DNA from: Planctomycetota bacterium
Lineage (GTDB): Bacteria > Planctomycetota > Phycisphaerae > WQYP01
DNA length: 32,525 bases
Reading direction: 5' to 3'
Assembly: GCA_048498455.1 (NCBI GenBank)
Contig: JBEHXY010000003.1
Coordinates: forward strand, 1-32,525
The notes under the pieces are model-generated. The model was given only the letters and a program-made list of their open reading frames with translations. It was not told the origin of the DNA and did no database searches. Each line of letters opens with the position of its first letter. The stretch's first letter is position 1. Shown here piece after piece: positions 220 through 15,598 of the stretch. The position numbers were made by a program, and so were the translations under genes.

Positions 220-481
220 GCAGTTCGTCCCAAATTCGCTTGGCAAGTGCATTTGTGTTTCAACAAACGAGCGACATGGGTCGCATAGGGGACGGCATCG
301 GGGCGGGGCGACCACAAAATAGTCCTTAAGTATTGACTTGCCAAAGAGCTCGAGCGAATCCCCGAACAGACGCACCACCTGACCGCTCGCGACAAGTTCT
401 GAACGAAAATGCAGCACGAACACCCCTCATCTCCAGACGAGGATGTATCATAGCAACGATGCATTGACAACGAAAAACAAC
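220..481 (-). promoter_or_regulatory. CRISPR leader
   Basis: Non-coding, lower-GC stretch between the cas2 stop (482) and the first repeat (219); contains repeated CGAGCG(A) motifs. Confidence 0.8.
447..455 (-). promoter_or_regulatory. Possible extended -10 promoter (TGnTATGAT) for the array
   Basis: Minus strand reads TGCTATGAT at 455-447, pointing into the leader and array; no good -35 at 17-bp spacing. Confidence 0.35.
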
Positions 482-772
482 CTACACGATCATGCTGCGC
501 ACCGGCGGATCGTAGGCTTTCCCCACCGCCTCCACGTGCACCGAGAGTTCATGTTCGCTCTTGCCCAGGTCCACGAACAAGACCTGGTCCTCCCCGCAAT
601 CGATCATCCCCGCCACCGACGCCTCCAGTGCCACCCGTTCCGCGATTGTCAATTGGCAGAAGAACACGCTGAACTGCGCGTGGTCGCCGTGGTCCTGCAG
701 GGTGTTGAACACCTGCGTGCGCCGCTTGTCGTCGGCTATGTCGTACGTGATCAAAAAATGCCGCCGGCTCAT
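482..772 (-). CDS. cas2: CRISPR-associated endonuclease Cas2
   Basis: 96 aa; LITYDIADDKRR and AQFSVFFC motifs; sits between cas1 and the array. Confidence 0.96.
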   Translation of the reverse strand: MSRRHFLITYDIADDKRRTQVFNTLQDHGDHAQFSVFFCQLTIAERVALEASVAGMIDCGEDQVLFVDLGKSEHELSVHVEAVGKAYDPPVRSMIV

Positions 773-776
773 CGCT

Positions 777-2555
777 TCACCGCGTCACAATGTTGCTGTA
801 CCGATCGATGTCACCGCGCAGCCAGCGCGACAGCAAGCGTGCTTGGAGCAGGATGGCGCTCCGCCACGAGCAGCGATAGCCAAACGCCGGATGGCTGATC
901 ATCTGGTCCAGACGCGCCTCATACGCCCGCAGCAGCCCCTTGCGCGCCGCATCGTTCATGCAACAGCCCGACGCCGCGATCGTGAAGCCCGACGTTCCCA
1001 CCATCCCCGTGTTGATCGCGGTGATGACCGCCGAATCCGCGATGATCGGCCGCAGCGGCTCCATCATGTCCAGCGCCAGCGCCGGCCGCCCATGCCGCGG
1101 ACGATGATAAAACCCCCAGAACGGATCCAGCCCCTCCGCCAGCAGCGCCACCGTGCATTCCTTCGCCAAAAGTGCGTAGGCGAAACTCAGCATCGCATTT
1201 ACCGGGTCCTTCGGCGGGCGACGGTTCCGCGCGGCAAAATCCCAGCTCGCTTCCATGTCCCGCGGCCGCAGCATCGCGGAAAACTGCGAAAAATAACTCC
1301 GCGCCACGTTCCCCTCGAGCCCCAGCAGCGACTCCACGGACGCCGTCTTCTCCACCTGCGGCACCAAATCCTCCATGTCCCGCAGCGCCCGATCCACCTC
1401 CGGAGAGGTCGCGGCGTTCCGCCGAAGCTGCGTCCGCTGGTTCATCGCCTTGTCCTGCACGATGCCCCGGGCGAAGGTCAGCGATCGCTCCCGGTCCGCC
1501 GCCGCTGCAAACTGCGCCGCCCGGTCATAGGCGTTTTTCAGCGTGATCCCGTGGGCGGCTCCGTAAAACCACATTCCCGCGGAAAAGTACACCACGGGAA
1601 TGTCCGCTTCCAGCAGCAAATGCACCGTTTGCGTCGACATTTGCACGTTTCCACACAGCACCACCTGGCTCACGTCCTTGGTGCCCACGCGCGTGAGTTC
1701 CTCCCCCTCCGCTTTTACCACAAGGCTTTCCCCCTTCTTGGACACGTACGCCCCCTGGTGCTGCACATACAGCGGCGTCGCCGTGGGCCGCGGCGGGAAG
1801 AGCCGCCGGATGCCCAGGTTGTCCACATCCTCTCCATGTCCGCGCGGCTTGGCGGGAATGGCCGCGTTTCCCGCCGCCGCGCGCATCGCAGCGATATCGC
1901 GCAGTGCCAAGGTTTCGTCAGGCATGCAGATTCCCGCGATCGAGCATCCCGCGCATTTGGGGCTGTCTTCCAGCGGATCGGGAATCACCGTCAGGTGTGT
2001 CGCCGCCTGGGTTTTGTTGATCAACTCGCGCGTCTGAAGCTCCAGTTCGCTTGTGAAGGGCACCGTCACCCGAACCCGTGATCCCGCGAAATACACCATC
2101 CCGTGGTCGCACTGGTATCCCTGTTCGCGCAGCAGCAGCCCCTGGGCCATCAACTGCACGCGCTGGGTGTCGTAGCAGCGCTCCGGGGTGTTGGGCACGC
2201 GCCCGCGCTTCGTTTCCACCGGCGCCGCCTCCTCGCCGTCGGTGCTCACCAGGTCCAGTTTCGCCGTCAGCCCCAGCTCCGAAGAGGCCAGCGACACCGA
2301 CCGCGAAATGACCGGGGGCTCATCGCCCTGCTCCGCTTCCTTAGACTCCTTCCCCTTGACGCCGCTCGCCGCCGGCAGCACATGGTCCACGCGATCGACC
2401 CGCCGATGCACATGGCGCCCTTCGATCGTGTACTGATTGTCCGCCCACCGTCCCTCGACATACATCAGATGAAACCGCCGCGGGCAGTAGGTGTACTGGC
2501 CGACCATGTCCAGGGTGAGCGCGTCGTCGCCGGTGATCGAAACATTCGCAGGCAT
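777..2555 (-). CDS. cas4/cas1: Cas4-Cas1 fusion
   Basis: N-terminal Cas4: YCPRR, KLDLV, VETK, CAGCSIAGIC Fe-S cysteines. C-terminal Cas1: LLGLEGNVARSYF, RRPPKDPVNAMLSFAY, GFYH, LALDMMEPLRP. The fusion is typical of type I-G. Confidence 0.96.
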   Translation of the reverse strand: MPANVSITGDDALTLDMVGQYTYCPRRFHLMYVEGRWADNQYTIEGRHVHRRVDRVDHVLPAASGVKGKESKEAEQGDEPPVISRSVSLASSELGLTAKLDLVSTDGEEAAPVETKRGRVPNTPERCYDTQRVQLMAQGLLLREQGYQCDHGMVYFAGSRVRVTVPFTSELELQTRELINKTQAATHLTVIPDPLEDSPKCAGCSIAGICMPDETLALRDIAAMRAAAGNAAIPAKPRGHGEDVDNLGIRRLFPPRPTATPLYVQHQGAYVSKKGESLVVKAEGEELTRVGTKDVSQVVLCGNVQMSTQTVHLLLEADIPVVYFSAGMWFYGAAHGITLKNAYDRAAQFAAAADRERSLTFARGIVQDKAMNQRTQLRRNAATSPEVDRALRDMEDLVPQVEKTASVESLLGLEGNVARSYFSQFSAMLRPRDMEASWDFAARNRRPPKDPVNAMLSFAYALLAKECTVALLAEGLDPFWGFYHRPRHGRPALALDMMEPLRPIIADSAVITAINTGMVGTSGFTIAASGCCMNDAARKGLLRAYEARLDQMISHPAFGYRCSWRSAILLQARLLSRWLRGDIDRYSNIVTR

Positions 2556-2557
2556 GA

Positions 2558-3451
2558 TCAGGGCTCCTCACTATGGCCGTCGATGGCGACCGGATTTGCC
2601 AAGTACAGATTTTTCTTATACTCGATGCGACGAGCCCCGAAGCATGCGAACACGCCCATTTCCTGCGTCCATGTCCGCTGTTGGAGCAGACATCCGATCG
2701 CCTCTGCATTCAAAGCGGCACGCCACAGGGGCCACGTGAAATGTGTCTCGCCTTTGATCTCGCGAAATCCGGTTGTTCGCAAACCATCAGTCGTTGGGAC
2801 AGACACCAGGAACGAAGTACCCACAAATGCGAGCGCATTTGCGGCGGCGACGGACCGGGTTTCCGTGCTGCCCGGGTCTGTAGACATGTGCGCTCCGGTG
2901 CGCATATCCAGCGGGTCCCAACGAAATGTGGGCTGGTCGAGGTCTTCATAGCGCCACGGCTCAAATAACGCTCCGCGGAGCCGCTCCGGCGTCGCGACCT
3001 GCACCAGCTTTTGGAAGTCTTTCAACAACAGCTTTCCCCCTTGGCCATTGCTGAAACTGAGCTGATTGGGAACGACGGTGCCTTTCTTCTCGGTCAAAAT
3101 CGCGTTCGACCCAAACGCCGCCGCGAAGCGCAGCCGGCACTCGCTCTCCGCTTGGTAGCCCTCCTTGACGAACTGCTCGAAGCGGCTGCATTCAACCCCA
3201 ATAATGTCGCCCAGCCCCGTCACACCCTCTTTGATGACCATCCGTAAACCATCACTCAGTTGCTGCGAAAACTCAGCCGGCGCCATCGGTTGCTGGGTAT
3301 ACAGCACCGCCCGAAATCCTTTCGTCCAGCCAAGCCCCGGTGACGCCGCGTCCACCATCCCGATCAGCCGCAACACCCCCAGCGCCGCCAGGAATCCCAC
3401 CGGATTCGCCCCGTCGATCCCGCTCAGTTCCGTCGCATGAACCGTTTTCAC
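2558..3451 (-). CDS. csb3: Type I-G large subunit, short form (Cas8g2/Csb3-like)
   Basis: 297 aa; LSGIDGANPVGFLAALGVLRL N-terminus, FRWDP and FTWPLW motifs; GTGA overlap with the cas3 stop. Confidence 0.8.
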   Translation of the reverse strand: MKTVHATELSGIDGANPVGFLAALGVLRLIGMVDAASPGLGWTKGFRAVLYTQQPMAPAEFSQQLSDGLRMVIKEGVTGLGDIIGVECSRFEQFVKEGYQAESECRLRFAAAFGSNAILTEKKGTVVPNQLSFSNGQGGKLLLKDFQKLVQVATPERLRGALFEPWRYEDLDQPTFRWDPLDMRTGAHMSTDPGSTETRSVAAANALAFVGTSFLVSVPTTDGLRTTGFREIKGETHFTWPLWRAALNAEAIGCLLQQRTWTQEMGVFACFGARRIEYKKNLYLANPVAIDGHSEEP

Positions 3452-6429
3452 CGTTCATCCTCCTGCTCGGCCACCGCACTTGCGTGTTGATCCGCGCATC
3501 GCAGCATCGATTCCAGGTACGCCAATCCCCACCAGCCATACCGCCGCGTCAACCCCCAGAACCGCTCCAGCACGCCGCTGTCGAGCCGGTGAGCCACGCC
3601 AGCAATTTCGGCTCGCGAACTCCGATCCTCAGCCCCCAGCCTTAGCCCCCCGATGGACACCGCTGGAGCCGCTTCATCCTCGACCACCGGCGCCAGCGGC
3701 CGCGCATATCCGTGATGCGCCGCTATCAAGTGCAATACCAAATCCCTCTCGCCATCCGCCAACTCCCCCGACCTCGCGGCCAATTGCATCGACAACATCT
3801 CATGCCGAAATCCCTCAGGCACCCCGAAATGCTGCCGCGCCTCCCGCTCTTTCCGGCCCGCAAACGTCCGCCCCGACTTTGCCAACAACTGCGTTTCTGT
3901 TCCCGCCCACCGCCGCCCCGCCAGATAGTTTTGAAACCGCCCATCGGCCTTCCCATAGTCATGCAGTTGCGCCGCCTCTACCATCAGCTTGGAAAGTTCC
4001 GGCGCCAGCACCGCCGACAACCAGCTCGCAGCCGCCTGGACCTCCCCGGTATGGTGCCACAGGAGCATCCGCTCATCCCCGCGCGATACCGACTCATCCC
4101 CTTCATCCGTCTCAAACGCCCAGTCCTCCACCAGTTCCTTCCGCTGCTTCCTCACCAGCAAATACTCCTTCTCCCCGTACGCCACCACGCGCGGTGGCTG
4201 CCACTCCCGCGATGCTCCCACCGCCAGCTTCCCTACTTCCTCCATCCATTCCCGTGCCAAGCGTTTTTCGCTGGAATCCGTCGGCATCGCTTCGATCCCC
4301 GCCCCCACCGCCGCCAACACCTCTTCAAGCTCCCGCTTTTCCCCCGCTTCCTTCTTGACGGTCGCCGCTTCTCCGAGCACTGCCGGAACGCGCAGCGCCA
4401 CGGCCTGCTTCGTCTGCCAATATGCCCATTCGTATGCGTCCGCAGGCGTGTCCGCACGTGGACACAACGAGTCAAAGGATCCGTCTCCCGCTGACAAAAC
4501 CACCACATCCTGCGGCCTGATTTTTGTCACCGCGCGAGGCGCATTCGATAATTCCCCCGCACGCCATATCCACACGCGAAGTGATGTTCCCCCAGCCGCC
4601 CCCTCCTTTTCCTCTGCCTCCACCCCTAGTTCCAAATCATCCCCCGCCTTCGGCTTGCCCCCGTTCAGATATTCCCGCAGCTCCCGCAACGGCAGCGTCA
4701 ACATCTCCGCCGACACCGGCGGCATCTCCTCCAGCGCCCGCCGCTCCGCTTCCAGATCCCGCCTCATTCCTTCGAGTTCCGCCGCCACCTCCCGCCGCCA
4801 GATCACCCGCACATCCGGCCGCGCCCGCTCCCCCGGCAGCGGAATCCCGTGCAGAAACAACCCAACCTCCGGCTCCAACGCCGGCTTCGGAGAAGTCTGC
4901 GACCACAAATCCACGTACGCCGGCAGCATCAGCGGTGCACGCCGCCGCCGCCCCACCAGCGATGACATGCGCCCGGCCGCTTGGACCTCCGCTACCGCCG
5001 GAGCCATCGCCCCAATGCCCATGTCCACCACCGTTCCCCCGAGCGCCCGGAGCCAGTTCCAGGTTCGTGCCAGCGCGTTTCCGTAAATCGGATCGAGCGG
5101 CTTCTCATCATCTAGGTCGTCATCCGCCGGCACATCGTTCTTCCGCGCCAGGATTGCCGCAGCCGCCGGTTGGGGCTGGTCCCCCAGCCGGTTCAACCGC
5201 CCGAACCGCTGCCGCAGCGCGTCCAGGCTCGCACACTCCGTCAGCAGCGCGTCAAAGCTGAAATCCGCCCCCACCTCCAGGCACTGCGTGGTCACCACAA
5301 CGATCGGCTTCTCCAACTTCTCCTTGCTGCCCGACTGCAGCTTCTTCTTATACGCCTCCACAAAACGATCCCGGTCCACCGGACGCCGGCGTCCGGTGAC
5401 AAGTTGCACGTCCGCCTGCTCGGCGCTCAGCAGTTTGCCCAAGGCGTCGATGACCTGCACCGCGGTCGCCACGCGGTTCACCATTACCGCCACGCGCTGC
5501 CGCCCGTCACTCACGAATGCCGCCGCCCGCTGTGCCGCTTCCGCCACCAATTCGTCGGCAGACAAGGTCTCCCCCTTGCCTTTGCCGCTCTTGGTTGAAG
5601 CGATCACCAACTGCGCGGGCTTCGATGCGCGAATCCGTTTTTGCAAAACAGCATCGCCAAGCGCCTTCTCCCGTTCCTCCAACGCAGGAAACACCCGCCA
5701 CTCGTTTTCCCCCGGCGGCGTCGCCGACATCACCACCAGCTTCAACGGCTTGTCCACCGGCTCATTCGCCCACGGCTTCCCGCGCAATCGCTCCACATAC
5801 CTCACCGTCTCAATGAAGGGCTCCGCCAGGTGCGCCTCGTCCACGATGATCAAGCTGTCGTTCCCCGCCAGCGCCGCATGAATCGGCAACATCCGATCCC
5901 CCACCCCATACCCCCGAAAGAGCAACCGCGACCCCAATTGGTCGATCGTGCTGGTGATCACGGCAGGCTGCGCCGGATTCCGGGACCACGCCACCTGCCG
6001 CGGCGCCCCGCCACGCAGTCGCGCCACGCCCAGCGGTGTCAATCCTTGATCACTTCTCTTGTCCTCCGGCCACCCTGCCACCGCCAGCAGACTGTTCCGG
6101 ACCCTGTGCAAAAGCCCTTCCTTCGCCCTCTGCAGTTGCTCCGCAATATCCTTCGCCCGCTCATACGCCTCATCCACCACAATCCGCCGATCCACCACAA
6201 ACCAGATCCGCCGCGGTGTGGGTAATCCCATTGCCAGCGCAAAGATCGCCACGTCCATGCACGCCGTCTTGCCGCTCGCCGTCGGCAAATCGATCAGGTC
6301 CGGCCATCCCTCCGTCGCCACCCGCTCCATTAGCATCGTCTGCCACGAAAACGGCTTGTACCCATGCAACCCTTCGAAGAACCTTCCGAAATCCCCCAAT
6401 GGCAGTTTTTCCGACATTGTCTTCATCAC
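3448..6429 (-). CDS. cas3: Type I-G Cas3 helicase-nuclease with C-terminal HD domain
   Basis: Walker A DLPTASGKT, DEAH, SAT, TTQCLEVGAD, QRFGRLNR. HD-domain motifs (LHDYGKAD, RHEMLS, AHHG, ADQHAS) are at the C-terminus, a type I-G hallmark. Confidence 0.96.
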   Translation of the reverse strand: MMKTMSEKLPLGDFGRFFEGLHGYKPFSWQTMLMERVATEGWPDLIDLPTASGKTACMDVAIFALAMGLPTPRRIWFVVDRRIVVDEAYERAKDIAEQLQRAKEGLLHRVRNSLLAVAGWPEDKRSDQGLTPLGVARLRGGAPRQVAWSRNPAQPAVITSTIDQLGSRLLFRGYGVGDRMLPIHAALAGNDSLIIVDEAHLAEPFIETVRYVERLRGKPWANEPVDKPLKLVVMSATPPGENEWRVFPALEEREKALGDAVLQKRIRASKPAQLVIASTKSGKGKGETLSADELVAEAAQRAAAFVSDGRQRVAVMVNRVATAVQVIDALGKLLSAEQADVQLVTGRRRPVDRDRFVEAYKKKLQSGSKEKLEKPIVVVTTQCLEVGADFSFDALLTECASLDALRQRFGRLNRLGDQPQPAAAAILARKNDVPADDDLDDEKPLDPIYGNALARTWNWLRALGGTVVDMGIGAMAPAVAEVQAAGRMSSLVGRRRRAPLMLPAYVDLWSQTSPKPALEPEVGLFLHGIPLPGERARPDVRVIWRREVAAELEGMRRDLEAERRALEEMPPVSAEMLTLPLRELREYLNGGKPKAGDDLELGVEAEEKEGAAGGTSLRVWIWRAGELSNAPRAVTKIRPQDVVVLSAGDGSFDSLCPRADTPADAYEWAYWQTKQAVALRVPAVLGEAATVKKEAGEKRELEEVLAAVGAGIEAMPTDSSEKRLAREWMEEVGKLAVGASREWQPPRVVAYGEKEYLLVRKQRKELVEDWAFETDEGDESVSRGDERMLLWHHTGEVQAAASWLSAVLAPELSKLMVEAAQLHDYGKADGRFQNYLAGRRWAGTETQLLAKSGRTFAGRKEREARQHFGVPEGFRHEMLSMQLAARSGELADGERDLVLHLIAAHHGYARPLAPVVEDEAAPAVSIGGLRLGAEDRSSRAEIAGVAHRLDSGVLERFWGLTRRYGWWGLAYLESMLRCADQHASAVAEQEDER

Positions 6430-7934
6430 TCGCTCTCCCGCTTTTGATCCATCGGCCGCAGCAATCCATACCCCCGAAACCGCCCCGCTCCCACCAGCAG
6501 CGGCCCCACCACCGGCCGGTCAAACTCGATGACGACATGCGTATGCCGCCGCTCGCTTCCATCCTTGCGTTTCATCCGCGGAAAATCCCGTGCCGGCGGA
6601 ACGCCCACAACCTCAGAAACTGCCGACACCCGCGCCTTCACCCCCACCTCCGCCCCCACCACGCGCCGCGCCGCCTCCTCCACCGAAGCACAGCATTCCG
6701 CCAGATACGCCGCCCGATCCTTCGCCTTCCCATGCTGGTCGTACACCAGCGGCGTCACGCTCGCCCAGCGCGTCGCCCCGTGCGGCGCCCCGGTCCACGC
6801 CTCCGCCTGCAATGCCGCACGCCAATCACCCAACGGTCCCTCGCGCACCAGCCGCCACTGCCCCAGCCCCGGATAACGCTGCCGGTCAAAACCCAGCCCA
6901 GATCCCTGGTGTTTCCCTTCATCCGCAATCGCCTCGATTGCTGCCAGCAGCAGCCGCTCATCAACCTCCGCCATCCCGCGCGGAAAGGCGATCCCCACCC
7001 CCAGCAAATGCCCGTTGGCATGTTCATGCCCCACGAACCCCAGCGGAAAACAGGCCACGTGCGCCCGCGTGGTCGCTCCGCCTCCCTCCCCATGCCCGCT
7101 GATCGACTCGGGCGCTCCCTTTGGACAGTGCTGCAGAATCGCCGCTCGCAGCGTCGCCGTCAGTGCCAGCGTCGTCTCCAATTGCAAATGACGAAACGTC
7201 GTCGCCGCCGGCTCCAGCCGCAGAATCTCCACGCGCTCGTCAAACACCGTCCGAGCCGCATCCGCCGGCGCGTCCATAACTTCCGAATACCCCTGTGACA
7301 TCGAAATCACCGGCCGATACCGCGGCGGTGAACGGAACGCTGTTTCCAGCCGTTCCAGCGTCCCCGCCGTCTGGCTGACCACCCGCATCGTCATCGCCGG
7401 CCGCCGCTCGACCGGCTGCCACGTCTTCAGCCCCTCCCCCGGCCCCTCCGCCACCCACACCTGCGCCAGCGAACTGCTGTGCCCCAGCCGCCCCACCAGT
7501 GCGCACAGTACCGAGAGCGTCTCCCGATGCCCATCCACCCCCGGCGCCTCCGGCCAGTTGAAATAGAGGCTATCCTCCTCAGGCGCCAGCGCCACCCGCG
7601 GAAACAACCGCTCCGCCCGATGCCGCTTCAACACCGGAAGTGTCTGAATGGAACCCCCACGCCCCACCGCCTTCGCGTCGTTCATGGGCACGAACGCGGG
7701 CACCGCCTCGTTGACGATCGCGCGCCCGCTCACATGCACCGCCGGCGGTGGCAATCCCTCCAGCCACTCCAGCGCCGCCCGCTCGGCCTCCCCTCGTGCG
7801 CACTCGAAATGCGCCGCTGCCAGTGCCATATACAGCCGCGCCGGATGCGGCGGCCACTCCGGAACCGGATCCGTCTTCGACCGCGCCGTCCCGCACAGTC
7901 CGGTCAAAAATCTTACCGCGATCGTCAAAGACAT
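6426..7934 (-). CDS. csb2: Csb2 (Cas5-Cas6 fusion, type I-G)
   Basis: PEWPPHPARLYMAL, LGHSSSL, WASVTP and C-terminal glycine loop GPLLVGAGRFRGYGLLRP. Start placed at ATG 7934 (AAGGGG upstream) rather than the track's 7988. Confidence 0.93.
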   Translation of the reverse strand: MSLTIAVRFLTGLCGTARSKTDPVPEWPPHPARLYMALAAAHFECARGEAERAALEWLEGLPPPAVHVSGRAIVNEAVPAFVPMNDAKAVGRGGSIQTLPVLKRHRAERLFPRVALAPEEDSLYFNWPEAPGVDGHRETLSVLCALVGRLGHSSSLAQVWVAEGPGEGLKTWQPVERRPAMTMRVVSQTAGTLERLETAFRSPPRYRPVISMSQGYSEVMDAPADAARTVFDERVEILRLEPAATTFRHLQLETTLALTATLRAAILQHCPKGAPESISGHGEGGGATTRAHVACFPLGFVGHEHANGHLLGVGIAFPRGMAEVDERLLLAAIEAIADEGKHQGSGLGFDRQRYPGLGQWRLVREGPLGDWRAALQAEAWTGAPHGATRWASVTPLVYDQHGKAKDRAAYLAECCASVEEAARRVVGAEVGVKARVSAVSEVVGVPPARDFPRMKRKDGSERRHTHVVIEFDRPVVGPLLVGAGRFRGYGLLRPMDQKRESE

Positions 7935-8012
7935 GCTGCACCCCTTGGAAACCGACAGGATCCCACGGCCCCGCATCACCGGGACCACCGCTGCCTCGCT
8001 GGCGAGTGTCTA

Positions 8013-9212
8013 TCAGTCTTCGCCCGCTTCGCTCACCGCCAGCTCCTGGCTCTTCCTCACAAGCTCCACCAACTGCTTCGACGGCGTCAGCACCACCGGT
8101 TCGGTCTCCCACGGCAGCCCCGCCTTCTTCGCCGCCGCTATCGCATCCTTCAGCAACTTCACGGCCGCCTCCCGATCGAGCGCATAACCCACCGGCGCCT
8201 GCCCCGGCACCGCCAGCAGCTCCCACGCCATCGGCCCCTCCGGAAACAGCAAACACCGCGACCGCAAATCCATCCCCGCCCCAAACGCCATCGCCGCCGA
8301 ACACAGCCCCAGCGCCGCCAGCACCGCCCGCGCTGCCACGTTCACCTCCTCCGACGCCTTCCCCTCCTGCCTAAGCGGAAACCGCAGCCGCCGAAGCTGA
8401 ATCAGCGACAACGTCGTCGTCTGCTCCGCATACTCCACCGTCACGCCGCCGTTGTCCGATTCAAACGGCACGCTCCCATGATTGATCTCCGCGGGCGAAA
8501 GCGTCCCCTTCGCCTTCGGGTCCGCCGCGACCTTCCACTGCGTCGGCGATTCCCGCTGCACCTTTACTGCCGCGCGGCTCCCCAGCGGATCCCGCCGAAT
8601 CCCGTGATTCTTGTCCACCGTCTCCACGTTCATCCCCACGACCTCCGATACGATCGCCCGCTCAAACTTCGTGCCCAATCCCCCCTTGGGCCCCGTCGAA
8701 TCCCACATCCCAAACAAGAGTGCCTGCGGGCACAACCGAAACAGCGGCGTCGCAAACCCAGCCCCCGCCATATCGATCTCCTTCCCGACCGCCGACGCCC
8801 GAAACGGCTTCTTCTCAAACTCGCTGTCACGCAAAATCGCATCCGCAATCCGATGCGGCGCCTGCAAACTGCTCACACGCCCCACTGGCTCAAGCAATTT
8901 GGCATCCGAAAAATCCACCACCACCAGCGGCATCCCCACTTCGCCGCCCTCCACCGCCTCCTGCAACGCCTCCTCCATGCGGTTCGCCTGGCTCTGCACG
9001 CTGTCCAGCACGACGCACTTCACTGCCTCCTCCCGCCCCGGCACGCGCCGCTGCTCCACCGCGTACACCGCCCCCGCATACGTCGGCGGAAACACCTTGT
9101 CCCCCGCCCCGCCGGCCGGCTGCAACCGCCGCCGACACCGAAACGCCGCCCCTTCCCGCACCGCCTTCGCCAACACCTCATACGTCAACACCGTACCCTG
9201 CGTTTCCGCCAT
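8013..9212 (-). CDS. csb1: Csb1 (Cas7, type I-G backbone)
   Basis: LQPAGGAGDKVFPPTY, LDSVQSQANRME, PHRIADA, LLFGMWDS; AGGAGA RBS at 9223-9218. Confidence 0.94.
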   Translation of the reverse strand: MAETQGTVLTYEVLAKAVREGAAFRCRRRLQPAGGAGDKVFPPTYAGAVYAVEQRRVPGREEAVKCVVLDSVQSQANRMEEALQEAVEGGEVGMPLVVVDFSDAKLLEPVGRVSSLQAPHRIADAILRDSEFEKKPFRASAVGKEIDMAGAGFATPLFRLCPQALLFGMWDSTGPKGGLGTKFERAIVSEVVGMNVETVDKNHGIRRDPLGSRAAVKVQRESPTQWKVAADPKAKGTLSPAEINHGSVPFESDNGGVTVEYAEQTTTLSLIQLRRLRFPLRQEGKASEEVNVAARAVLAALGLCSAAMAFGAGMDLRSRCLLFPEGPMAWELLAVPGQAPVGYALDREAAVKLLKDAIAAAKKAGLPWETEPVVLTPSKQLVELVRKSQELAVSEAGED

Positions 9213-9223
9213 GACGATCTCCT

Positions 9224-9243
9224 AAAAAGCGGCGCAACGCCGC
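9224..9243 (-). terminator. Putative intrinsic terminator/attenuator between herA and cas7
   Basis: Minus strand GCGGCG-TTG-CGCCGC followed by TTTTT, directly abutting the cas7 RBS. Confidence 0.45.
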
Positions 9244-9308
9244 GGTTCCATCTGCTTTCCTATTCCCACACAAGGCACCTTGTGCGACACACTTTCACAA
9301 GATGTTCT

Positions 9309-11186
9309 TCACTCCACCATCCGCAACTTGCACGGCGTCGGATCGATGCTCACCTGCAGCGCCCGCCCCAGCGTCGTCAGGCTCACCACCGCCTGGCCCG
9401 GCGCCAGCGCCGGGACCCGCGCCCACAGGCTGTCGTCGATCCCCCCGATCGACCGCCGCAGCCGCGTGATCACGTTGGCGTCCCCGATCTTGTGCAAAAT
9501 CCAATTATTGATCAGCCCCAGCACTTCGTCCGGCAAGTGCTGCGGCAACTGCGTGATGAACGCCATCCCGAACCGCCGCTTCCGCCCGCGCCGCGCAATC
9601 CGCGCCACTTGCTGGAAAAGCACCGGCATCTGCTTGATCCGCTGCGCCGACAGAAACTCATGCGCCTCCTCAATGCAGACCAGCACCGACGGCGGAGCCT
9701 CCCCCTTCTCCACCGCCCGCTCGTAATTTTCCTCCTGTGCCCCCTGCAGTCCCCGCAGCAAATCGGCGATCACTAGGTTGTTGATCTGCGGCGAATCCGT
9801 GTCGCTCAAATCCAAAATCGTCACCCGCCCCGGTCGCAACAGCAGCGGATACTCCAGCGGCTTGGCCTCGCGGTCATTCAGCGAATCCTTCACCTCCGAA
9901 TCAAAAATCCCCAGCCGCACGATTCTCCCCAGTTTTCCCACCACCGCCATCCAGGGAAACTTATTCTGCGGCACGTCCTTGTGCTCGCCCACGATCCCAA
10001 CCACCTCGTCCTCCCGCCCGCGCAACTCCCGGCTCGTCAGCCGCACCTCCCCCTTCTCTTTCTCCTTTCCCACCCCGGCCGTGATCGCCCGCACCACGTC
10101 ATACAGCAGCGGCAGGGTCATCTTCGGATACCCCTCCTCCATCTCGTCGAGCTCCACCTGCCGCACCCGCTCCTCTGGCGACACCGGCCAGATCTTCAGC
10201 CGCTCCATCACCACCTTGGCGATGTCATACGCTTTCAAAAACCGCTGCTCCTGCGCCTCATTAAGTTCCAGAATCTCCGCCACCGCAAAAGGCGAAAGCG
10301 TCTCAAAACGCAGCGAAAACGGCCTCCGATGCGGATGCCCCGGATTCGCCGACTTCCGCCCGATCAGGTGATAAATGACGCTCTCCCGCACCCCCGCCGG
10401 CCGCAAGCCCCGCCGCGCCAGCGCCTCCACCATCCCCTTGTCATTCGTCGGCTCGTTGATGTGCGTGTACTCCCCCTCCGTGTCAATCAGCACCACCGCA
10501 ATCCCCTCCGCCAGCGCCCGCGCGATCAGCCCGGACACCGTCGTCGACTTCCCGCCTCCCGTCGTCCCCAGCACCCCCAGGTGCCGCGGAAACAGCCCCT
10601 TCGCTTTCGCCGGCACCACTACTGGCAAATCCTCGAAGCCGTCCGCCAGCCCCAGCCGCAAATTCCCCTCCAGCTTCAGCACCTCCGCGGTCTGATGGGC
10701 ATCCAGCGCGAACACCGGACTATTGGGCTTCGGCCGCCGCCGCCGTGGCACCACCGCCCCGCCCCCCAGCTTCTCCCCGATCAGCTGGATCTGTACGCGC
10801 CCATGATGTTTGGGCAGCAGCAATCCCCCCTTGGCCAACGACACCACCATCGGCGTCGCATCCGCGCGCAGCCCGTCCGGCTCCGCAAACGGCCCCGCCA
10901 CTACCGCCCCCAGATACACCCGCCCATCCTTGCTGGCGATCCGCACCAGCGCCTGGCTCGTGAGAGAATCAATCATCCCCATCGGCAAAATCGCCGTCAC
11001 CGTCCCATCCTCGCTCGAGGCCGAATCAAACATCGTCCGCCCCACCGCCCCCTCCTCGCCCGCCGGCGGCACAAACGGCCCGCCCGGCACCCGCCCCGCA
11101 TCCGCATCAATCGCCGCCAGCGCTTCTTTCGGTGTCGGCATCGCCGCCCCATCGTCCTCCGCCTCTTCATGCTCCTTGACCACCAT
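9309..11186 (-). CDS. herA: HerA-family (FtsK/HerA, DUF87) ATPase/helicase
   Basis: Walker A GVLGTTGGGKST, IDTEGEY, Walker B VCIEEAHEF, arginine finger ARRGRK, ITQLP; N-terminal HAS-barrel-like region. Start placed at ATG 11186 after GGAGGA. Confidence 0.9.
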   Translation of the reverse strand: MVVKEHEEAEDDGAAMPTPKEALAAIDADAGRVPGGPFVPPAGEEGAVGRTMFDSASSEDGTVTAILPMGMIDSLTSQALVRIASKDGRVYLGAVVAGPFAEPDGLRADATPMVVSLAKGGLLLPKHHGRVQIQLIGEKLGGGAVVPRRRRPKPNSPVFALDAHQTAEVLKLEGNLRLGLADGFEDLPVVVPAKAKGLFPRHLGVLGTTGGGKSTTVSGLIARALAEGIAVVLIDTEGEYTHINEPTNDKGMVEALARRGLRPAGVRESVIYHLIGRKSANPGHPHRRPFSLRFETLSPFAVAEILELNEAQEQRFLKAYDIAKVVMERLKIWPVSPEERVRQVELDEMEEGYPKMTLPLLYDVVRAITAGVGKEKEKGEVRLTSRELRGREDEVVGIVGEHKDVPQNKFPWMAVVGKLGRIVRLGIFDSEVKDSLNDREAKPLEYPLLLRPGRVTILDLSDTDSPQINNLVIADLLRGLQGAQEENYERAVEKGEAPPSVLVCIEEAHEFLSAQRIKQMPVLFQQVARIARRGRKRRFGMAFITQLPQHLPDEVLGLINNWILHKIGDANVITRLRRSIGGIDDSLWARVPALAPGQAVVSLTTLGRALQVSIDPTPCKLRMVE

Positions 11187-11215
11187 GGCATCCTCCACTC
11201 GTTATACGCACAAAC

Positions 11216-12445
11216 TCACCGTGTCCTGCGCTCCGACATGTACCGAAATGGTGCCCCCGCCTCCGAATACGCCACCTGCATCGATGCCGTAAACGCATCC
11301 ATTCCGAATGTCGCCTTGCAAAGGTTGTCCGCCAGATCGATCAGCATCGGAAAACCGCGATGCTCCTGCAGCACGCTATCTGCCAGCGCAATCAGCGCCG
11401 CTTCATGGGCATGGTCCACATGCGCATAGAATGCCTGGCACGGGCTGAATCGCGACGCCCGATACAGCCCCCGCACAATCTTCGGCCCGCACTCGCGGAT
11501 GAACGCATCCAGTTGATCTTTGATCGGCCCCCACCCCTCGCCGCGATAATGCCCCCCGGCAACCTCCCCCAGGAACTGCTCGTGCGTCTCCAGGATCGCA
11601 TATTCCAGCGGCTGAAGGGCATTGCCGATGGTCAGCCACTGCCGCCCCTTGAAACTCGAAGGCACGAACACAAACCGCTCAAGCTCCACCATCCGGCGAA
11701 ACATGCGGATGCTCATTGCCGCAAGCTGCGCCATCCCGGACCCCGTCAACAGCTCATACGGCGTGGGATTCCCATGCCCCATCCGCCACACCGCGTTCGA
11801 ACGGTCCATCAGCACCGCACGCTCCGCATACGCCATGATCCCCCGCCGCGCAAGGTCGCTCAGCCGGTCACGCGCCGCCGCTTCATCAACCGCCGATCGC
11901 CGCCGCCGCCGTTCGAGGAGGGCATACAATGCATTCACCGGATCTCTCCCCTGACCCCGCAGATCCCGCCGAAACAACCGATGCACCCACGACCCCTGAT
12001 CCCCCTGGTACCCCGTCAAACACACCCCGATCTGCGTGATCGTCACCGGCAGCGTGTCATGCGCCGCCACGATCCCGTCACACGCCTCCACCCCTCCGTT
12101 GAACAGCAATTTCTGGTGAACCCCCTCTACCTGTTCGACCTTTGCCCTCCACACCCCCGCGCACGCCAAGCCCTGCCGCTCGCGCAATTGTGGAAAAATT
12201 TTCTCCCGAATCTTTTTCTGCCAATCCCCCTCCTTCCGCACTGCCTCCGCCACCTCCGCCTCCAGCCGCCCATACAACGCCGCCAAGTCCCCCCCCGCAC
12301 GCCACGTGTCCAGGTCCAGCGCCCGCTCCAGCGGCTCGTCAAACTCCCTGCTGAAATCGTCCCCGCCCATCGACGGTCTCGAATCAGGCACGCCGCCGCC
12401 CAGACTGCCCTCCTCACCCTCCTGCATGTCATCCGACTCGCTCAC
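11216..12445 (-). CDS. Divergent NurA-like (RNase H fold) nuclease
   Basis: 409 aa; VEACDGI resembles the NurA AxDGS motif and RGFPMLIDLAD resembles GYPxxLxxAH/D; lies immediately upstream of herA; CAGGAG RBS. Confidence 0.65.
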   Translation of the reverse strand: MSESDDMQEGEEGSLGGGVPDSRPSMGGDDFSREFDEPLERALDLDTWRAGGDLAALYGRLEAEVAEAVRKEGDWQKKIREKIFPQLRERQGLACAGVWRAKVEQVEGVHQKLLFNGGVEACDGIVAAHDTLPVTITQIGVCLTGYQGDQGSWVHRLFRRDLRGQGRDPVNALYALLERRRRRSAVDEAAARDRLSDLARRGIMAYAERAVLMDRSNAVWRMGHGNPTPYELLTGSGMAQLAAMSIRMFRRMVELERFVFVPSSFKGRQWLTIGNALQPLEYAILETHEQFLGEVAGGHYRGEGWGPIKDQLDAFIRECGPKIVRGLYRASRFSPCQAFYAHVDHAHEAALIALADSVLQEHRGFPMLIDLADNLCKATFGMDAFTASMQVAYSEAGAPFRYMSERRTR

Positions 12446-12472
12446 CGTCCAGCTCCTGTGGTGACAAGATGC

Positions 12473-13197
12473 TTACGCGCCCAACCACTCCCGCATCGAT
12501 TGCTCTTTTCGCCCACTTTCCCTCAAAAACGCCCCATACGCCCGCGCCGCTGCCTGCGGCAACCCAAACGCCGCCCGCAACACTTCGCCCGCCTCCGCAC
12601 CCGCATTCCCGATCCGCCGCCGCGCCTCCTCCGCCGGCGCCAAAAGCTCCAGCGCCAACCGATCCGCCGCATCCTCTGCCGCCAGCACCCGCGCGCTCAC
12701 GATGGATTCGTCCGGCCCACGCTCCATCAGGTGCTCCTGTCCCCCCACCTTCACCCCTGCAAACAACGCATTGAGCCGTTCCTCAGCCGTGGCCGGCCGG
12801 AGCCCATCCAGCGCCGGCGCAACCCCCGGCCCCAGCGCCGCAATCACCCGTTCCCGCGGCCACCAGTAGTCCATCAGGAAATGCGCAAGCTCGTGCGCCA
12901 GCGAATACCGCCTCTCGTCCGCCCCGTCCGCCGCATCCAGGAAAATCACTCCCCACCCGTTGCGCGCCACCATGCATGCCCGCAGCTTTCGCCCCGCGAC
13001 ATGCGCATCCCCAAAGCCCGCCACGCGCGCCGCCGCCAGCCACCCCTGCACCGCGCCTCCGTCCAGCCATGACCGCATATGAATCGCCACTGGCAACGAC
13101 GACAGCGTCGCTGTCTCGAGGTCTCGCGGAAACGGTCCTCCTTGCCTGCCAGCTTCCAGAACCGCGCCGCGTGCATTGCCACCTCATACTCCGTCAC
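12473..13197 (-). pseudogene. ImmA/IrrE-family (DUF955) HExxH metallopeptidase, frameshifted near 13137
   Basis: RRYSLAHELAHF and EDAADRLALELLAP motifs. The GTG 13197 frame (MTEYEVAMHAARFWKLAGKE) joins GPFPRDLETATLSSLPVAI if one G is added in AAGGAGGACCG, giving 241 aa. Could be a sequencing error. Confidence 0.8.
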
Positions 13198-13655
13198 GTC
13201 CCACCTCCTTTCTCCCCGGAACTTAAATCCCCGCCTTTCTCACCTGTTTGCCGGTCCCGCGCTGCCATCAACCATCCTCCGCCGGCAATGCCCTCGCCCA
13301 GCGCTACCACCGCCGCAACCTCTTTCACTACCCGCCCAAGCGCCGCCGCATCACACGGACCCGCCGCCGCGATCGCCTCCACGTCCTCCCGAAACGTGCC
13401 GCCTTCTTTGCCGGCCAATCCCTCACTTCGCGGCATAAAACACATCGCCAACGGCACAATTGCCCTAGCCTCGCACCCCAGCGCCCCCGCCAATTGCTCC
13501 TCCGACATTCCATGTATTCCCCGATAAACCCCAAGGGCATGCCCCAGAAACCGCCGATCCCCCGCGAGTTGATCCGCCGCCCGGCGGAACGCTCGCTCCA
13601 TCGCCCGCGCTTCCCCAGCCCGCTCAGTCTGATCGTTTCCTTCATCCGCTTTCAT
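13194..13655 (-). CDS. Hypothetical protein with XRE/Cro-like HTH segment
   Basis: 153 aa; LGVYRGIHGMSEEQLAGALGC looks like an HTH; C-terminal WLMAARDR; overlaps both neighbouring genes. Confidence 0.6.
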   Translation of the reverse strand: MKADEGNDQTERAGEARAMERAFRRAADQLAGDRRFLGHALGVYRGIHGMSEEQLAGALGCEARAIVPLAMCFMPRSEGLAGKEGGTFREDVEAIAAAGPCDAAALGRVVKEVAAVVALGEGIAGGGWLMAARDRQTGEKGGDLSSGEKGGGT

Positions 13656-14279
13656 GCCACTGATCTCCCAGCCGCCGAATCTGTTTGCTGATCCGATCCT
13701 TGCACCGCTTCACTTGATCTCGTTGCTCTTCGATGGGCAAATGCCCGATGTGCATGGTCTCTGCATAAACCTCAGTCCTCCGTTCATCCGCCAGCATCAA
13801 TCGCAGCACCTGCAGGTCTACCTCAGAGTTAAACAGGGCCTCTGCCCGCACAAGAAATTCCTTATTCTCAGCGATCGCCGCCGGATCGTGCCGCCCTTCA
13901 TCCCCCTTATTCCCATCCGCTTGGGAAAGTTCGACAGCCGCCCCCAAAATTCTTCCGTCCCCGCGCTGGGCCTTCGCCAGTGCATTTCGGAAGTCCCCCT
14001 CAGCCGCCATCTTCAAGAATCCCCAAAGCGATTTTCCTCGGTGCGGGTCATACAAGCCGGGTTTCCCAAGAAGCGATAAGACAGCATCGGTGGGCTGTCC
14101 ACAACCAGATCGTCGTCAGCGCGAGCCCCGAATCGCGTCGCCAAATGCCGAAAGAGTGCGGGAAGCGCGATAGTTAGCAGATGGACCCCACCGGCGGGCT
14201 GGCCTTCAACCACTCCCTTGAATGCTTCCATCAGGGCCACTTGGTCAATTGCTCCCGCCTTCTCCACGAGTCGCTCCAT
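13642..14279 (-). pseudogene. Sigma70/ECF-like sigma factor, frameshifted near 14093
   Basis: The ATG 14279 frame (…ADDDLVVDS) joins TDAVLSLLGKPGLYDPHRGKSLWGFLKMAAEGDFRN (region 2-like) if 1 nt is added in GACAGCCCACC. C-terminal DLQVLRLM…YAETM…VKRCKDRISKQIRR is region 4-like. 212 aa when restored. Confidence 0.7.
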
Positions 14280-15598
14280 CAGGGCTTTTGAAAAATAACT
14301 ACCACTTCACGACGCATCCGCCCCGCCACAGGATTGGACCGCGCCAGCTTCCCTGGTGGTGGCAGGCTCCGCCATCCGGCCGGCAAACTTCGAACCGCGT
14401 GTCCTACCATCGTCAGTCCGTGCTGGACTCCCAAAGCCTCCACCACCTCCGCCTCATCCGACCGACTCTTATTGATTACCGTCGGTCCCAACACCATTGC
14501 TGCCAGCCCCCCTGAGCGCAGCACCCTCGACACTTCCGACAGACTGTGCCCCAAATCCGAAAGATACCTCCGAACCAGGGCCTGCCTCCGACCCTCCTCC
14601 AACCGTCGCTTCAGCCGCAGTTCCAATTCCGTCGGCAACCCGTCGCGCGTCCACAAGCCGCGCTCCGACCCGATGAGGCTTCCGCGCAGCTCCCGGAGTC
14701 CTTTCAGCGAATGGCCCATCCAGACAAGCGAGAATCTGTGCCCCCGCAAATAGTCGATCGCATTGAGACACGGGGGAGAGGTCAGCACCAGATCCACCCG
14801 CCCGCTCGCAATGGGCAGGTTCCGCGCGTCGCCTTGCATCACCATGGCCGGAAGACCCGCGGGCGCTGCAAACGAGCGGCGAGCGATGACCGCGGTAAAC
14901 CGCTTCTCCCATAAAGCGAAGGGCGTCGACAACTCCCGGCCCTTGACCTTGTGCGGCCGGGAACGCGCAATATCTAGGGCGTACGAAACGCCCGCGCTCT
15001 TGGCGATGATCAACGACGAAAACGCGACCTCCGAGAGAGTTCGCACGGCATCCGCGGGCTCCTCGCGTATGGCGATTCGCAGCGCGTCGAGCTCATCTCT
15101 CGCCCCCCTTGGAAACCAATACGACAGAAACGTTCGAAGTTCAGCCGGGTGCCTGCCTTTACCAGATTTTAGTCGCGGAACCTCCTCCTTCATCACCTGC
15201 TTGGCCCGGGTCAAGATCCGCTTACCGGCCAGAAGGATATCGTCGGGCCAGTGATCGTTCACACTTACGCGGCTGACGAGCAATGCCAAGGGATCTCGAT
15301 CGATTCCCACGCCAACCCGGCCCAGAAATTTTGCCGCCACCACCGTTGTCCCCGACCCACACATCGGATCCAGCACGACATCACCCGGCCGGCTCAAGGC
15401 CTCGATGATCGCACGGGCCAGCGATTGGGGCATACGTGCGGGAAAAGGATGAACCCTCGCCCCATCCCGGTCCTGCCCCACCGCTCCCGCATCGATCGCA
15501 CGCAAGAGCGTTTGTGCGGCGGAGCGAAACTCGGCTGCATCAAACGACATACCCGGCACGGATCGCTCCCAGCGCGCAAAGCTGATCGGCTTGCTCAT
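14279..15598 (-). CDS. DNA amino-methyltransferase (N4C/N6A type, motif I before motif IV) with SPPC catalytic variant
   Basis: HPFPARM, SAM-binding VLDPMCGSGTT, GDAR, VDLVLTSPPCLNAIDY, RVLRSGG; TGATG overlap with the sigma gene. Confidence 0.85.
   Translation of the reverse strand: MSKPISFARWERSVPGMSFDAAEFRSAAQTLLRAIDAGAVGQDRDGARVHPFPARMPQSLARAIIEALSRPGDVVLDPMCGSGTTVVAAKFLGRVGVGIDRDPLALLVSRVSVNDHWPDDILLAGKRILTRAKQVMKEEVPRLKSGKGRHPAELRTFLSYWFPRGARDELDALRIAIREEPADAVRTLSEVAFSSLIIAKSAGVSYALDIARSRPHKVKGRELSTPFALWEKRFTAVIARRSFAAPAGLPAMVMQGDARNLPIASGRVDLVLTSPPCLNAIDYLRGHRFSLVWMGHSLKGLRELRGSLIGSERGLWTRDGLPTELELRLKRRLEEGRRQALVRRYLSDLGHSLSEVSRVLRSGGLAAMVLGPTVINKSRSDEAEVVEALGVQHGLTMVGHAVRSLPAGWRSLPPPGKLARSNPVAGRMRREVVVIFQKP

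Follow-up and report, generated by a model that had tools for sequence, protein, structure and literature searches.

Twelve co-oriented genes lead up to a CRISPR array at the end of a planctomycete contig, which raises the question of whether they make up one immune system or two. The DNA that we analyzed, called the window below, is the first 32.5 kb (32,525 nucleotides) of contig JBEHXY010000003.1 from a 4.05-Mb metagenome-assembled genome of a Planctomycetota bacterium (GCA_048498455.1; 82% complete). On its minus strand, from 15598 to 482, twelve reading units run in one orientation and end at the array (40-220). The six nearest the array are the cas genes of a type I-G system. The six ahead of them are a DNA methyltransferase (MTase) gene, an extracytoplasmic function (ECF)-like sigma gene, a gene for a small protein of 153 amino acids (aa), an ImmA/IrrE-type (M78) metallopeptidase gene, a gene for a putative nuclease with the NurA fold, and a herA-family gene. 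We think it rather probable that these six are an autonomous, sigma-regulated, restriction-like cassette, that its cargo slot is filled here by the I-G operon, and that the coupling between the two is regulatory and has probably decayed in this genome.

The six-gene cassette and its neighbors

We asked whether the six genes occur together elsewhere. Relatives of the nurA-like protein number more than 2,600 in a large protein collection and form at least 487 clusters at 50% identity. Homologs that are 47 to 67% identical occur in 14 species-representative genomes from the Latescibacterota, Binatia, Thermoanaerobaculia, Chloroflexota, and Planctomycetota; 400 other genomes from the phylum of the window yielded none. 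Metagenomes were scanned with 12 close nurA-like proteins as the query, an alignment of 33 diverse ones being too divergent. The survey covered 94 loci, namely, the 14 genomes and the best 80 of 401 metagenome matches (labeled L...). We found herA directly after the nurA-like gene in all 83 testable loci (HerA homologs 48 to 63% identical), an ImmA-type peptidase gene ahead of it in 81 of 81, and the sigma gene beside it in 66 of 68. The small protein was detected in 57 of 68 testable loci and, since it is short and divergent, its misses are likely detection failures. Of 56 testable loci, 49 have the MTase gene upstream in the same orientation, four have it inverted or displaced, and in three it was not found. 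Judged by this conserved order, the six genes form an autonomous cassette. We found no published description of it in the open-access literature and bioRxiv; a listing in a supplement or a subscription journal is possible.

The junctions between the genes are conserved as well. Each junction in the window was reread on the minus strand, and the single orientation, overlaps, and gaps reported by the first-pass annotation were all confirmed. The MTase stop and the sigma ATG share TGATG at 14279, the sigma-like reading and the 153-aa gene overlap by 14 bp (13642-13655), and the 153-aa gene and the ImmA-like gene share GTGA (13194-13197, with a GTG start at 13197). The ImmA-like gene ends at 12473, 27 nucleotides (nt) before the nurA-like start at 12445; the nurA-like gene ends at 11216, 17 nt before the herA start at 11198; and herA ends at 9309, 96 nt before the cas7 start at 9212. 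In related loci the median junctions are -14 nt from sigma to small protein, -4 nt from small protein to ImmA, and +7 nt from MTase to sigma. Because the same junctions recur, the overlaps belong to the gene set itself and did not arise by chance.

We then considered what lies beyond herA. The downstream scan comprised 234 open reading frames (ORFs) in the 50 loci with at least 2 kb beyond herA, with PADLOC thresholds of 1e-5 and 1e-12 in two scans. A PADLOC match was present within about 8 kb downstream in 28 of the 50 loci (the inverted MTase of L068 itself was excluded), and the matches included Zorya, DRT2, PifA, AbiE, PsyrTA, HEC-05, TmtA, restriction-modification components, UvrD-like helicases, and DEDDh exonucleases. 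The commonest flanking gene family occurred in at most six loci. No integrase, relaxase, capsid, or replication gene recurred beside the cassette. Genes for Cas proteins were found downstream of herA in 4 of the 50 loci and belong to three types: type I-G in L011, where cas4/cas1-cas2 comes straight after herA; a type I other than G in L013; and type V-B in L071 and L084, with cas4/cas1, cas2, and cas12b. The array finder reported arrays in L011, L084, and the window only. Of the five CRISPR-adjacent loci, the window counted, four have a Cas4/Cas1g-type fusion, which stands straight after herA in L011 and L084. Homologs of cas7g occur in 15 of the 400 other genomes of the phylum, and none of the 400 has the nurA-like gene. 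The first-pass annotation had treated the twelve genes as one unit built around type I-G, and this claim did not survive the survey, in which the six genes travel alone. Since 46 of 50 loci lack cas genes, the cas neighbors are of three types, and 15 genomes with I-G genes lack the cassette, the cassette is not a dedicated I-G accessory. Its neighborhoods identify it instead as a putative resident of defense islands with many partners.

The evidence for each gene is given in Table 1. The gene identities proposed by the first-pass annotation were borne out by Pfam and Foldseek for the MTase, the sigma factor, the ImmA/IrrE peptidase, the NurA fold, and HerA; its helix-turn-helix (HTH) assignment for the small protein found weak backing (Z at most 4.4). 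The nurA-like protein matches no Pfam, NCBIfam, or PADLOC family at an E value of 0.01 or below. However, Foldseek ranks 1 to 10 for its model are all NurA, HerA-NurA, or TdpAB chains (E values of 2.4e-6 to 4.3e-5; TM scores of 0.31 to 0.49), led by NurA 2ygk (E value of 2.4e-6; TM scores of 0.41/0.49) and followed by HerA-NurA 9x1m, NurA 3tal, and TdpAB 8wfd_G. The NurA matches come from Sulfolobus, Pyrococcus, and Thermococcus, and the HerA-NurA match comes from Deinococcus. As the fold comes without a curated sequence-family match, we call the protein a NurA-fold nuclease and not a member of the curated NurA family. Its candidate acidic residues, which have not been superposed on a solved active site, are E120, D123-G124, and D356, all invariant in 12 close homologs, with D356 retained in 33. 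HerA scores 70.8 versus 23.2 bits for DUF87 and 44.8 versus 22 bits for HerA_C in Pfam. It falls outside the curated equivalogs (best NCBIfam score, 64.6 versus a cutoff of 800; HerA_antiphage, 42.9 versus 800) and also weakly matches FtsK_SpoIIIE and TrwB_AAD_bind. The Peptidase_M78 match of the metallopeptidase spans residues 49 to 76 only, with the HELAH (HEXXH) motif included, and three homologs score 23.3 to 31.3 bits.

The two sigma fragments of the window match no Pfam family by themselves. Region 4 of sigma gave no Pfam match at an E value of 1 or below and no PDB profile match; in the homolog alignment there is a conserved basic C-terminal stretch, VKRHKDRLKKRL. The 153-aa protein matches no Pfam, NCBIfam, PADLOC, or PDB-sequence family, and profile searches of PDB sequences with the sigma and small-protein alignments gave no match and one match at an E value of 0.38, respectively. 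Comparison of the small-protein model with XRE-type domains was weak (best Foldseek E value of 0.39; VIA-align Z at most 4.4). The closest structures are the 434 repressor (Z of 4.4, root mean square deviation of 3.4, 61 aligned residues) and the CapH N-terminal domain (Z of 4.3), values below the meaningful level for helical models. The ImmR DNA-binding domain and DdrO are also among the weak structural matches. We found that the predicted complex of sigma with the small protein (the L002 pair) scored 0.83, versus 0.08 for the best of three controls. Of 80 solved complexes, 58 reached the score mark used, as did 2 of 110 mismatched pairs; these counts are a rough guide only, since our own alignments were used. 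The prediction runs shared at least 98% of contacts, the partner had a pLDDT (predicted local distance difference test score) of at least 81, and the interface was formed by the N-terminal helices of sigma. The small protein is thus predicted to be a sigma-binding partner.

The promoter-like motif and the frameshifted regulators

The regions before nurA have a bipartite motif in common: TGTCGAAC(TT), a spacing of about 14 nt, and GGGAATA. With a loose pattern, 148 matches lay on the cassette strand of the 94 loci versus 3 on the opposite strand. Of 69 loci, 55 have the motif inside the sigma gene; 67 of 86 have it no more than 330 nt ahead of nurA, and 7 of 65 have it in the 400 nt that follow herA. 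The matches labeled nurA-upstream stand 4 to 116 nt from the called nurA start. The sigma-internal copy encodes V-E ... G-N in an otherwise variable linker between sigma domains. Its codons, GTC GAA ... GGG AAT, are fixed even in G+C-rich genomes, which points to a constraint at the DNA level in this linker. All seven copies after herA precede co-oriented cargo, namely, MazG_C, RmuC, DUF2130, Mre11-like plus Rad50-like proteins (L071 and L077), and two unknowns. In its spacing and in an upstream box that contains AAC, the motif resembles an ECF-type promoter. By eye, no common motif was seen in the 150 nt ahead of the MTase gene in 45 loci, a comparison made without a formal test.

In the window there are two matches to the motif, versus 0.20 expected: the better one inside the sigma gene and the other between herA and cas7 (Table 1). 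The latter lies 19 to 21 nt past the herA stop and 48 to 49 nt ahead of the cas7 start. An extended form of the motif has exactly two copies in the whole 4.05-Mb genome, these same two, and none in a reversed control. It is absent within 1.5 kb of 18 other cas7g loci, in 15 genomes of the phylum. Because the only copy of the motif outside the sigma gene stands 49 nt before cas7, the link between the two modules is most likely transcriptional and not a dedicated mechanistic partnership. In L071 and L077 the copy after herA has the same offset from herA as in the window, and in L071 a closely packed, co-oriented run of Mre11-like, Rad50-like, cas4/cas1, cas2, and cas12b genes comes after it, with no gap above 16 nt. 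That two unrelated CRISPR types, I-G in the window and V-B in L071, stand behind the cargo motif supports regulatory coupling; it says nothing of NurA-HerA working with Cas proteins. When 8900-16200 was scanned for the sigma-70 consensus, no promoter-like site turned up, and terminator-like sites are not enriched in the region (6 found versus 5.2 expected).

The regulatory genes themselves are broken in the window. The first-pass annotation had counted twelve genes; ten are open, and in each of the other two, the sigma-like and ImmA-like genes, it had missed a -1 frameshift. The sigma unit (13642-14279; 638 nt) lies in two frames, 14013-14279 and 13642-14055. Its homologs are single ORFs of about 200 to 210 aa, and comparison with them puts the frameshift at the CCC run 14092-14094. 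The peptidase unit (12473-13197; 725 nt) also lies in two frames, with the frameshift at about 13128-13129. Its homologs are single ORFs, and their N-terminal 35 to 40 residues are encoded in the other frame here. We found 12400-14400 covered by contigs of four runs from four studies, with 0 differences and 0 gaps; three of these runs are a possible source of the window DNA, and the fourth, X12, is not marked as a source and spans both frameshift sites. As identical breaks occur in independent contigs, the frameshifts belong to the organism and are not an assembly slip. The earlier claim of a dedicated sigma factor is therefore divided: it gains from the cassette-specific promoter-like motif before cas7 and loses from the frameshifts in sigma and ImmA. 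Apart from the two breaks, the coding sequence of the region, about 13.5 kb, is open. With sigma and peptidase frameshifted and the nurA-proximal motif missing, the regulatory switch has probably decayed in this genome. What is left looks like an inactivated-switch cassette in which the MTase, nuclease, ATPase, and cas operon are still open.

The sequence of 12400-14400 also recurs nearly word for word in soil and rhizosphere runs (20 matching rows from 9 studies; 19 rows with at least half of the sampled words). It appears that the organism, both frameshifts included, is widespread. Programmed -1 frameshifting was considered, as P-site re-pairing is possible at C CCA and T TTC; we set it aside because the homologs are single ORFs, a stimulatory element not having been looked for. 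That low-level -1 slippage at these two sites restores some protein is speculation.

The type I-G module and flanking genes

The genes at 482-9212 and the array at 40-220 are a complete type I-G CRISPR-Cas locus. Here the first-pass annotation was right: Cas3g with its HD domain, Csb1, Csb2, Cas8g, the Cas4/Cas1 fusion, Cas2, and the array are all present, and every curated type I-G model exceeded its cutoff (Table 1). A leader of about 260 nt separates the array from cas2. Tandem Repeats Finder listed no array in the window; a separate repeat search detected it.

Table 1. Features of the window and of a recurrent downstream neighbor in other loci
Feature	Position	Strand	Evidence and remarks
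DNA methyltransferase, 439 aa, intact	14279..15598	-	Pfam N6_N4_Mtase 9.2e-16; PADLOC MTase_II 4.7e-22
Motif inside sigma gene (TGTCGAAC, 14 nt, GGGAATA)	13908..13936	-	Position weight matrix 35.0 bits, best in window
ECF-like sigma gene, frameshifted	13642..14279	-	Sigma70_r2 in 12/17 homologs, best 8.7e-8
Small 153-aa protein, intact	13194..13655	-	Weak XRE-HTH-like core, conserved C-terminal LLMAARD; AlphaFold 2 (AF2) pLDDT 82.5
ImmA/IrrE-type (M78) metallopeptidase gene, frameshifted	12473..13197	-	Pfam Peptidase_M78 26.3 vs 22 bits; PADLOC capP 1.6e-7
NurA-fold nuclease, 409 aa, intact	11216..12445	-	Structure model only; AF2 pLDDT 87.3
herA-family hexameric ATPase/translocase, 629 aa, intact	9309..11198	-	DUF87 2.3e-19, HerA_C 9e-12; PADLOC HerA models to 5.2e-23
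Motif before cas7 (TGTCGCAC, 14 nt, GGGAATA)	9261..9289	-	Position weight matrix 24.2 bits, second best in window
G+C hairpin, 6-bp stem, 3-nt loop, then T5	9224..9243	-	17 nt before cas7 ATG, just before AGGAG
csb1/cas7g	8013..9212	-	Pfam Cas_GSU0053 1.7e-52; TIGR02570 73.8 vs 38 bits; PADLOC Cas7g
csb2 (Cas5-Cas6 fusion)	6426..7988	-	TIGR02165 260.6 vs 45 bits; PADLOC Cas56g 5.6e-100
cas3g, helicase + C-terminal HD nuclease	3448..6429	-	TIGR02621 686.3 vs 400 bits; Pfam Cas3_HD residues 789-911
cas8g / type I-G Cas3-extension family	2558..3451	-	NCBIfam NF049934 176.8 vs 65 bits; PADLOC Cas8g 2.8e-59
cas4/cas1 fusion (Cas4g/Cas1g)	777..2555	-	NCBIfam NF049935 677.9 bits vs cutoff 560; Pfam Cas_Cas1 + Cas_Cas4
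cas2 (Cas2g)	482..772	-	Pfam CRISPR_Cas2 3e-17; PADLOC Cas2g 6.4e-27
CRISPR array	40..220	-	Three 37-nt repeats 40-76, 112-148, 184-220; period 72; 35-nt spacers; cut by contig end
493-aa neighbor in six loci	L055:8621-10102; L075:8859-10340; L078:4542-6023; L082:13135-14616; L086:7872-9353; L089:8386-9867		

The most recurrent neighbor of the cassette is a 493-aa protein with a C-terminal RNase_H_2-superfamily domain, on the same strand after herA in six loci and without a PADLOC match; in three of the six, a protein of about 185 aa without a family sits before it. A UvrD-like helicase (860 to 945 aa) follows herA on the same strand in L006, L029, L034, L035, and L051, with a PD-(D/E)XK protein after it in L006 and L051, and it may be another recurrent accessory of the cassette. 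Beyond herA in L071 (6456-14551) and L077 (13026-15354), we observed a Metallophos (Mre11/SbcD-like) gene and an SMC_N/AAA_23 (Rad50/SbcC-like) gene together with a third copy of the motif. By their domain matches, these two cassettes would be bacterial defense cassettes with a full archaeal-style HerA-NurA-Mre11-Rad50 set. In L011, a long perfect palindrome (13248-13310) with the look of a strong terminator lies between herA and cas4/cas1 and separates the modules.

The G+C content of the window is 0.62 to 0.68 over 1 to 15 kb and 0.53 to 0.61 further on. Just past the MTase gene, at 16043-16615 (+), is an ORF that weakly matches DUF4096 (IS4/IS5 transposase), a fragment of the insertion sequence (IS) type. 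The G+C step near 15.6 kb and this ORF fit an acquired island that carries both modules. Further along are a FapA-family protein (17842-19197 [-]; FapA_N plus a beta-solenoid domain) amid ORFs without a family match, a 981-aa Ser/Thr protein kinase fused to beta-propeller (WD40/PQQ-like) repeats (21361-24306 [-]), and, after the kinase gene, a DUF1559 protein with an N-terminal methylation motif (24316-25179).

The proposed circuit, its alternatives, and related systems

We propose that the window holds two defense modules head to tail, Module A (9309-15598) and Module B (40-9212). In Module A, the MTase would mark host DNA. The ECF-like sigma would be held by the 153-aa partner, to which it is predicted to bind, until an infection or DNA damage signal leads the M78 peptidase to cut the partner and free sigma, by analogy with ImmR/ImmA and CapH/CapP. 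Freed sigma would then fire the motif promoter inside its own gene, before nurA-herA, and, in some loci, before cargo nucleases behind herA. Degradation of linear DNA is an established activity of HerA-NurA complexes, and the NurA-fold nuclease and HerA translocase of this family would degrade linear foreign DNA. With the I-G operon in the cargo slot, the cas genes would be induced together with NurA-HerA.

Several observations weigh against this proposal. Sigma and ImmA are both frameshifted in the window, in the independent assembly too, and the genome, at 82% completeness, yielded no second sigma of the cassette family. Consequently, the proposed control cannot work here as drawn, unless low-level -1 slippage restores the protein. 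The nurA-proximal motif is absent in the window, where the gap before nurA measures 27 nt. Between the motif and the start of cas7 is a hairpin followed by T5 that resembles a terminator. Among the five CRISPR-adjacent loci, the motif precedes the cas genes only in the window and L071; the gaps between herA and the cas genes in L011, L013, and L084 showed no copy of it. We infer that the motif is a promoter from its conservation, position, and strand, and we propose that the cassette sigma reads it. The MTase was not detected in L011, L013, and L067 despite enough upstream sequence, so methylation may not be obligatory. The survey leans on the closest 80 of the 401 metagenome matches, many of them short contigs. 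It used our own gene caller, with a codon model trained per locus and ORFs below 80 aa ignored, and PADLOC v2.0.0 only, and the screen of upstream flanks was limited to the Cas proteins of the window and the array finder. Two of the three cassettes without an MTase adjoin type I CRISPR-Cas.

We asked whether the data are better explained in other ways. The first-pass annotation proposed that the twelve genes are one system, controlled by a damage-sensing ImmA/HTH/sigma switch, in which resection by NurA-HerA provides prespacers for Cas4-Cas1 or finishes the degradation that Cas3 begins. The co-orientation of the twelve genes, the herA-cas7 gap of 96 nt, and the cassette-type motif ahead of cas7 all fit this proposal. 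So do the recurrence of the Cas4/Cas1g-type fusion, twice straight after herA, and the frequency of DNA-end processing functions among the cargo after herA (Mre11/Rad50-like, RmuC, UvrD-like plus PD-(D/E)XK). However, a system of this kind does not fit well with 46 surveyed loci that have no downstream cas gene, with cas neighbors of three types, with 15 I-G genomes of the phylum that lack the cassette, or with a sigma and an ImmA that are broken in this very locus. We therefore consider a single twelve-gene system improbable. A simpler explanation is that the I-G operon came to lie behind the cassette by chance within a defense island and that the motif before cas7 is a leftover 3' cargo promoter, irrelevant to cas expression. 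Consistent with this, the cassette has highly varied neighbors, the sigma gene of this locus is a pseudogene, a hairpin and T run separate the motif from cas7, and of the other four CRISPR-adjacent loci, three have no motif ahead of their cas genes. Chance, however, would not lead us to expect a motif 49 nt from cas7, inside the range of 4 to 116 nt seen for nurA, or the same arrangement with another CRISPR type in L071, and no sigma-70-type promoter was found in 8900-16200 to serve cas7 instead. Chance adjacency is on balance unlikely, although it deserves more weight than a single system.

It is also conceivable that the cassette is not a defense system at all and that it serves a mobile element in regulation and DNA processing. 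Integrative elements and prophages commonly have switches of the ImmR/ImmA type and FtsK/HerA pumps. The weak FtsK_SpoIIIE and TrwB_AAD_bind matches of HerA, the IS-type DUF4096 fragment, and the patchy spread over phyla, with no nurA-like gene in the 400 other genomes of this one, agree with such an origin. Against it, no integrase, relaxase, capsid, or replication gene recurs beside the cassette, 28 of 50 downstream flanks contain PADLOC defense matches, and the partner of HerA has the fold of the NurA nuclease. We regard a mobile-element module as very improbable, and we return to the autonomous cassette with a regulated cargo slot.

The cassette has features in common with several known systems. 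TdpAB(C) (PDB 8wfd) is a phosphorothioate-linked HerA/NurA-like restriction system. Like it, the cassette joins a HerA-type ATPase and a NurA-fold nuclease to a DNA modification gene, and chain G of 8wfd is among the top matches of the nuclease (E value of 6.3e-6). In contrast to TdpAB, its modifier is a methyltransferase and it has no phosphorothioation genes; the likeness is one of structure match. To our knowledge, the sigma/partner/peptidase triad and the promoter motif have no counterpart in TdpAB. By analogy with Tdp and the MAD7-MAD8 branch, the cassette would work in the manner of modification-linked HerA-NurA restriction, while being a member of neither.

MADS (methylation-associated defense system; mad1-8 of Pseudomonas aeruginosa) has a MAD7-MAD8 ATPase-nuclease module and is reported to act together with CRISPR-Cas (PMC13662399; bioRxiv 10.1101/2023.03.30.534895). 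The detection model of its authors makes MAD6 (a kinase), MAD7, and MAD8 mandatory (bioRxiv 10.1101/2023.03.30.534895). The cassette is likewise methylation linked and has an ATPase-nuclease pair; its HerA matches PADLOC mad8 at 8e-17 and its MTase matches mad2 at 1.8e-9. However, HerA matches generic HerA models better than mad8, and the nurA-like protein matches no mad model, mad7 included. Compared with the eight genes and about 22 kb of MADS, the cassette has six genes in 6.3 kb and no kinase, OLD-like MAD3/4, or specificity subunit. We ruled out membership in MADS on the missing kinase, the missing MAD3/4, and the far smaller size. HerA-NurA end-resection complexes are described for archaea and for Deinococcus/Thermus (PDB 2ygk, 3tal, 9x1m, and 7f6d; PMC13748450). 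The cassette resembles them in its nuclease fold, its HerA Pfam domains, and its tight nurA-herA pair, and it differs from them in a nuclease without a sequence-family match and in a defense-island setting with an MTase and a private regulator. Partners of the mre11-rad50 kind are missing from the window; Mre11/Rad50-like cargo lies beyond herA in L071 and L077.

The regulatory genes suggest, again by analogy, a combination of a CapH/CapP-type pair with sigma/anti-sigma control as in DdvS/DdvA. ImmR/ImmA, CapH/CapP, and DdrO/IrrE are protease-regulator pairs (bioRxiv 10.1101/2022.04.27.489752; PMC13228613). As in these pairs, the M78 peptidase of the cassette lies beside a small protein with an XRE-like core. 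Unlike ImmR/ImmA and CapH/CapP, the small protein is predicted from the modeled complex to bind the sigma encoded upstream, so that the proposed output would be sigma release and not derepression. In type III CRISPR, CalpL/CalpT/CalpS reportedly provides sigma/anti-sigma control. For DdvS/DdvA of Myxococcus xanthus, ECF sigma/anti-sigma control of defense islands is described (PMC11506125). The cassette would share with both a private ECF-type sigma, a regulon with a CRISPR-Cas operon, and the release of sigma by loss of the anti-sigma, which for the cassette is our proposal. It would differ from both in a candidate anti-sigma that is soluble, small, and XRE-like, in its M78 protease, and in an effector made of NurA-HerA and an MTase. 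The CRISPR types also differ, being I-G (window) and V-B (L071) versus type III for control of the CalpL/CalpT/CalpS type.

A bolder form of our proposal, which we advance tentatively and hold to be possible more than probable, is that this is a new and widespread cassette family in which a private sigma, an anti-sigma that is soluble and XRE-like, and a protease of the M78 type act together as a switch, triggered by infection, for NurA-HerA and for a plug-in cargo slot. The slot would have been loaded repeatedly with nucleases, among them CRISPR-Cas (I-G here and V-B in L071), which would place adaptive immunity under an innate alarm. The window is then a decayed example, with its sigma and protease frameshifted, and loci of the L071 and L002 types are better experimental material. 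If this is true, the cassette would be an unnamed, common defense module in soil and sediment bacteria of many phyla and would join Tdp and MAD7-8 of MADS among the few HerA-NurA restriction systems that are linked to modification. Its sigma, predicted partner, protease, and 29-nt promoter motif would make up a fully specified and testable circuit, which is rare for a defense system known from sequence only. It would also provide a concrete route by which CRISPR-Cas is wired to an innate alarm, and cas induction on infection would become testable with reporters.

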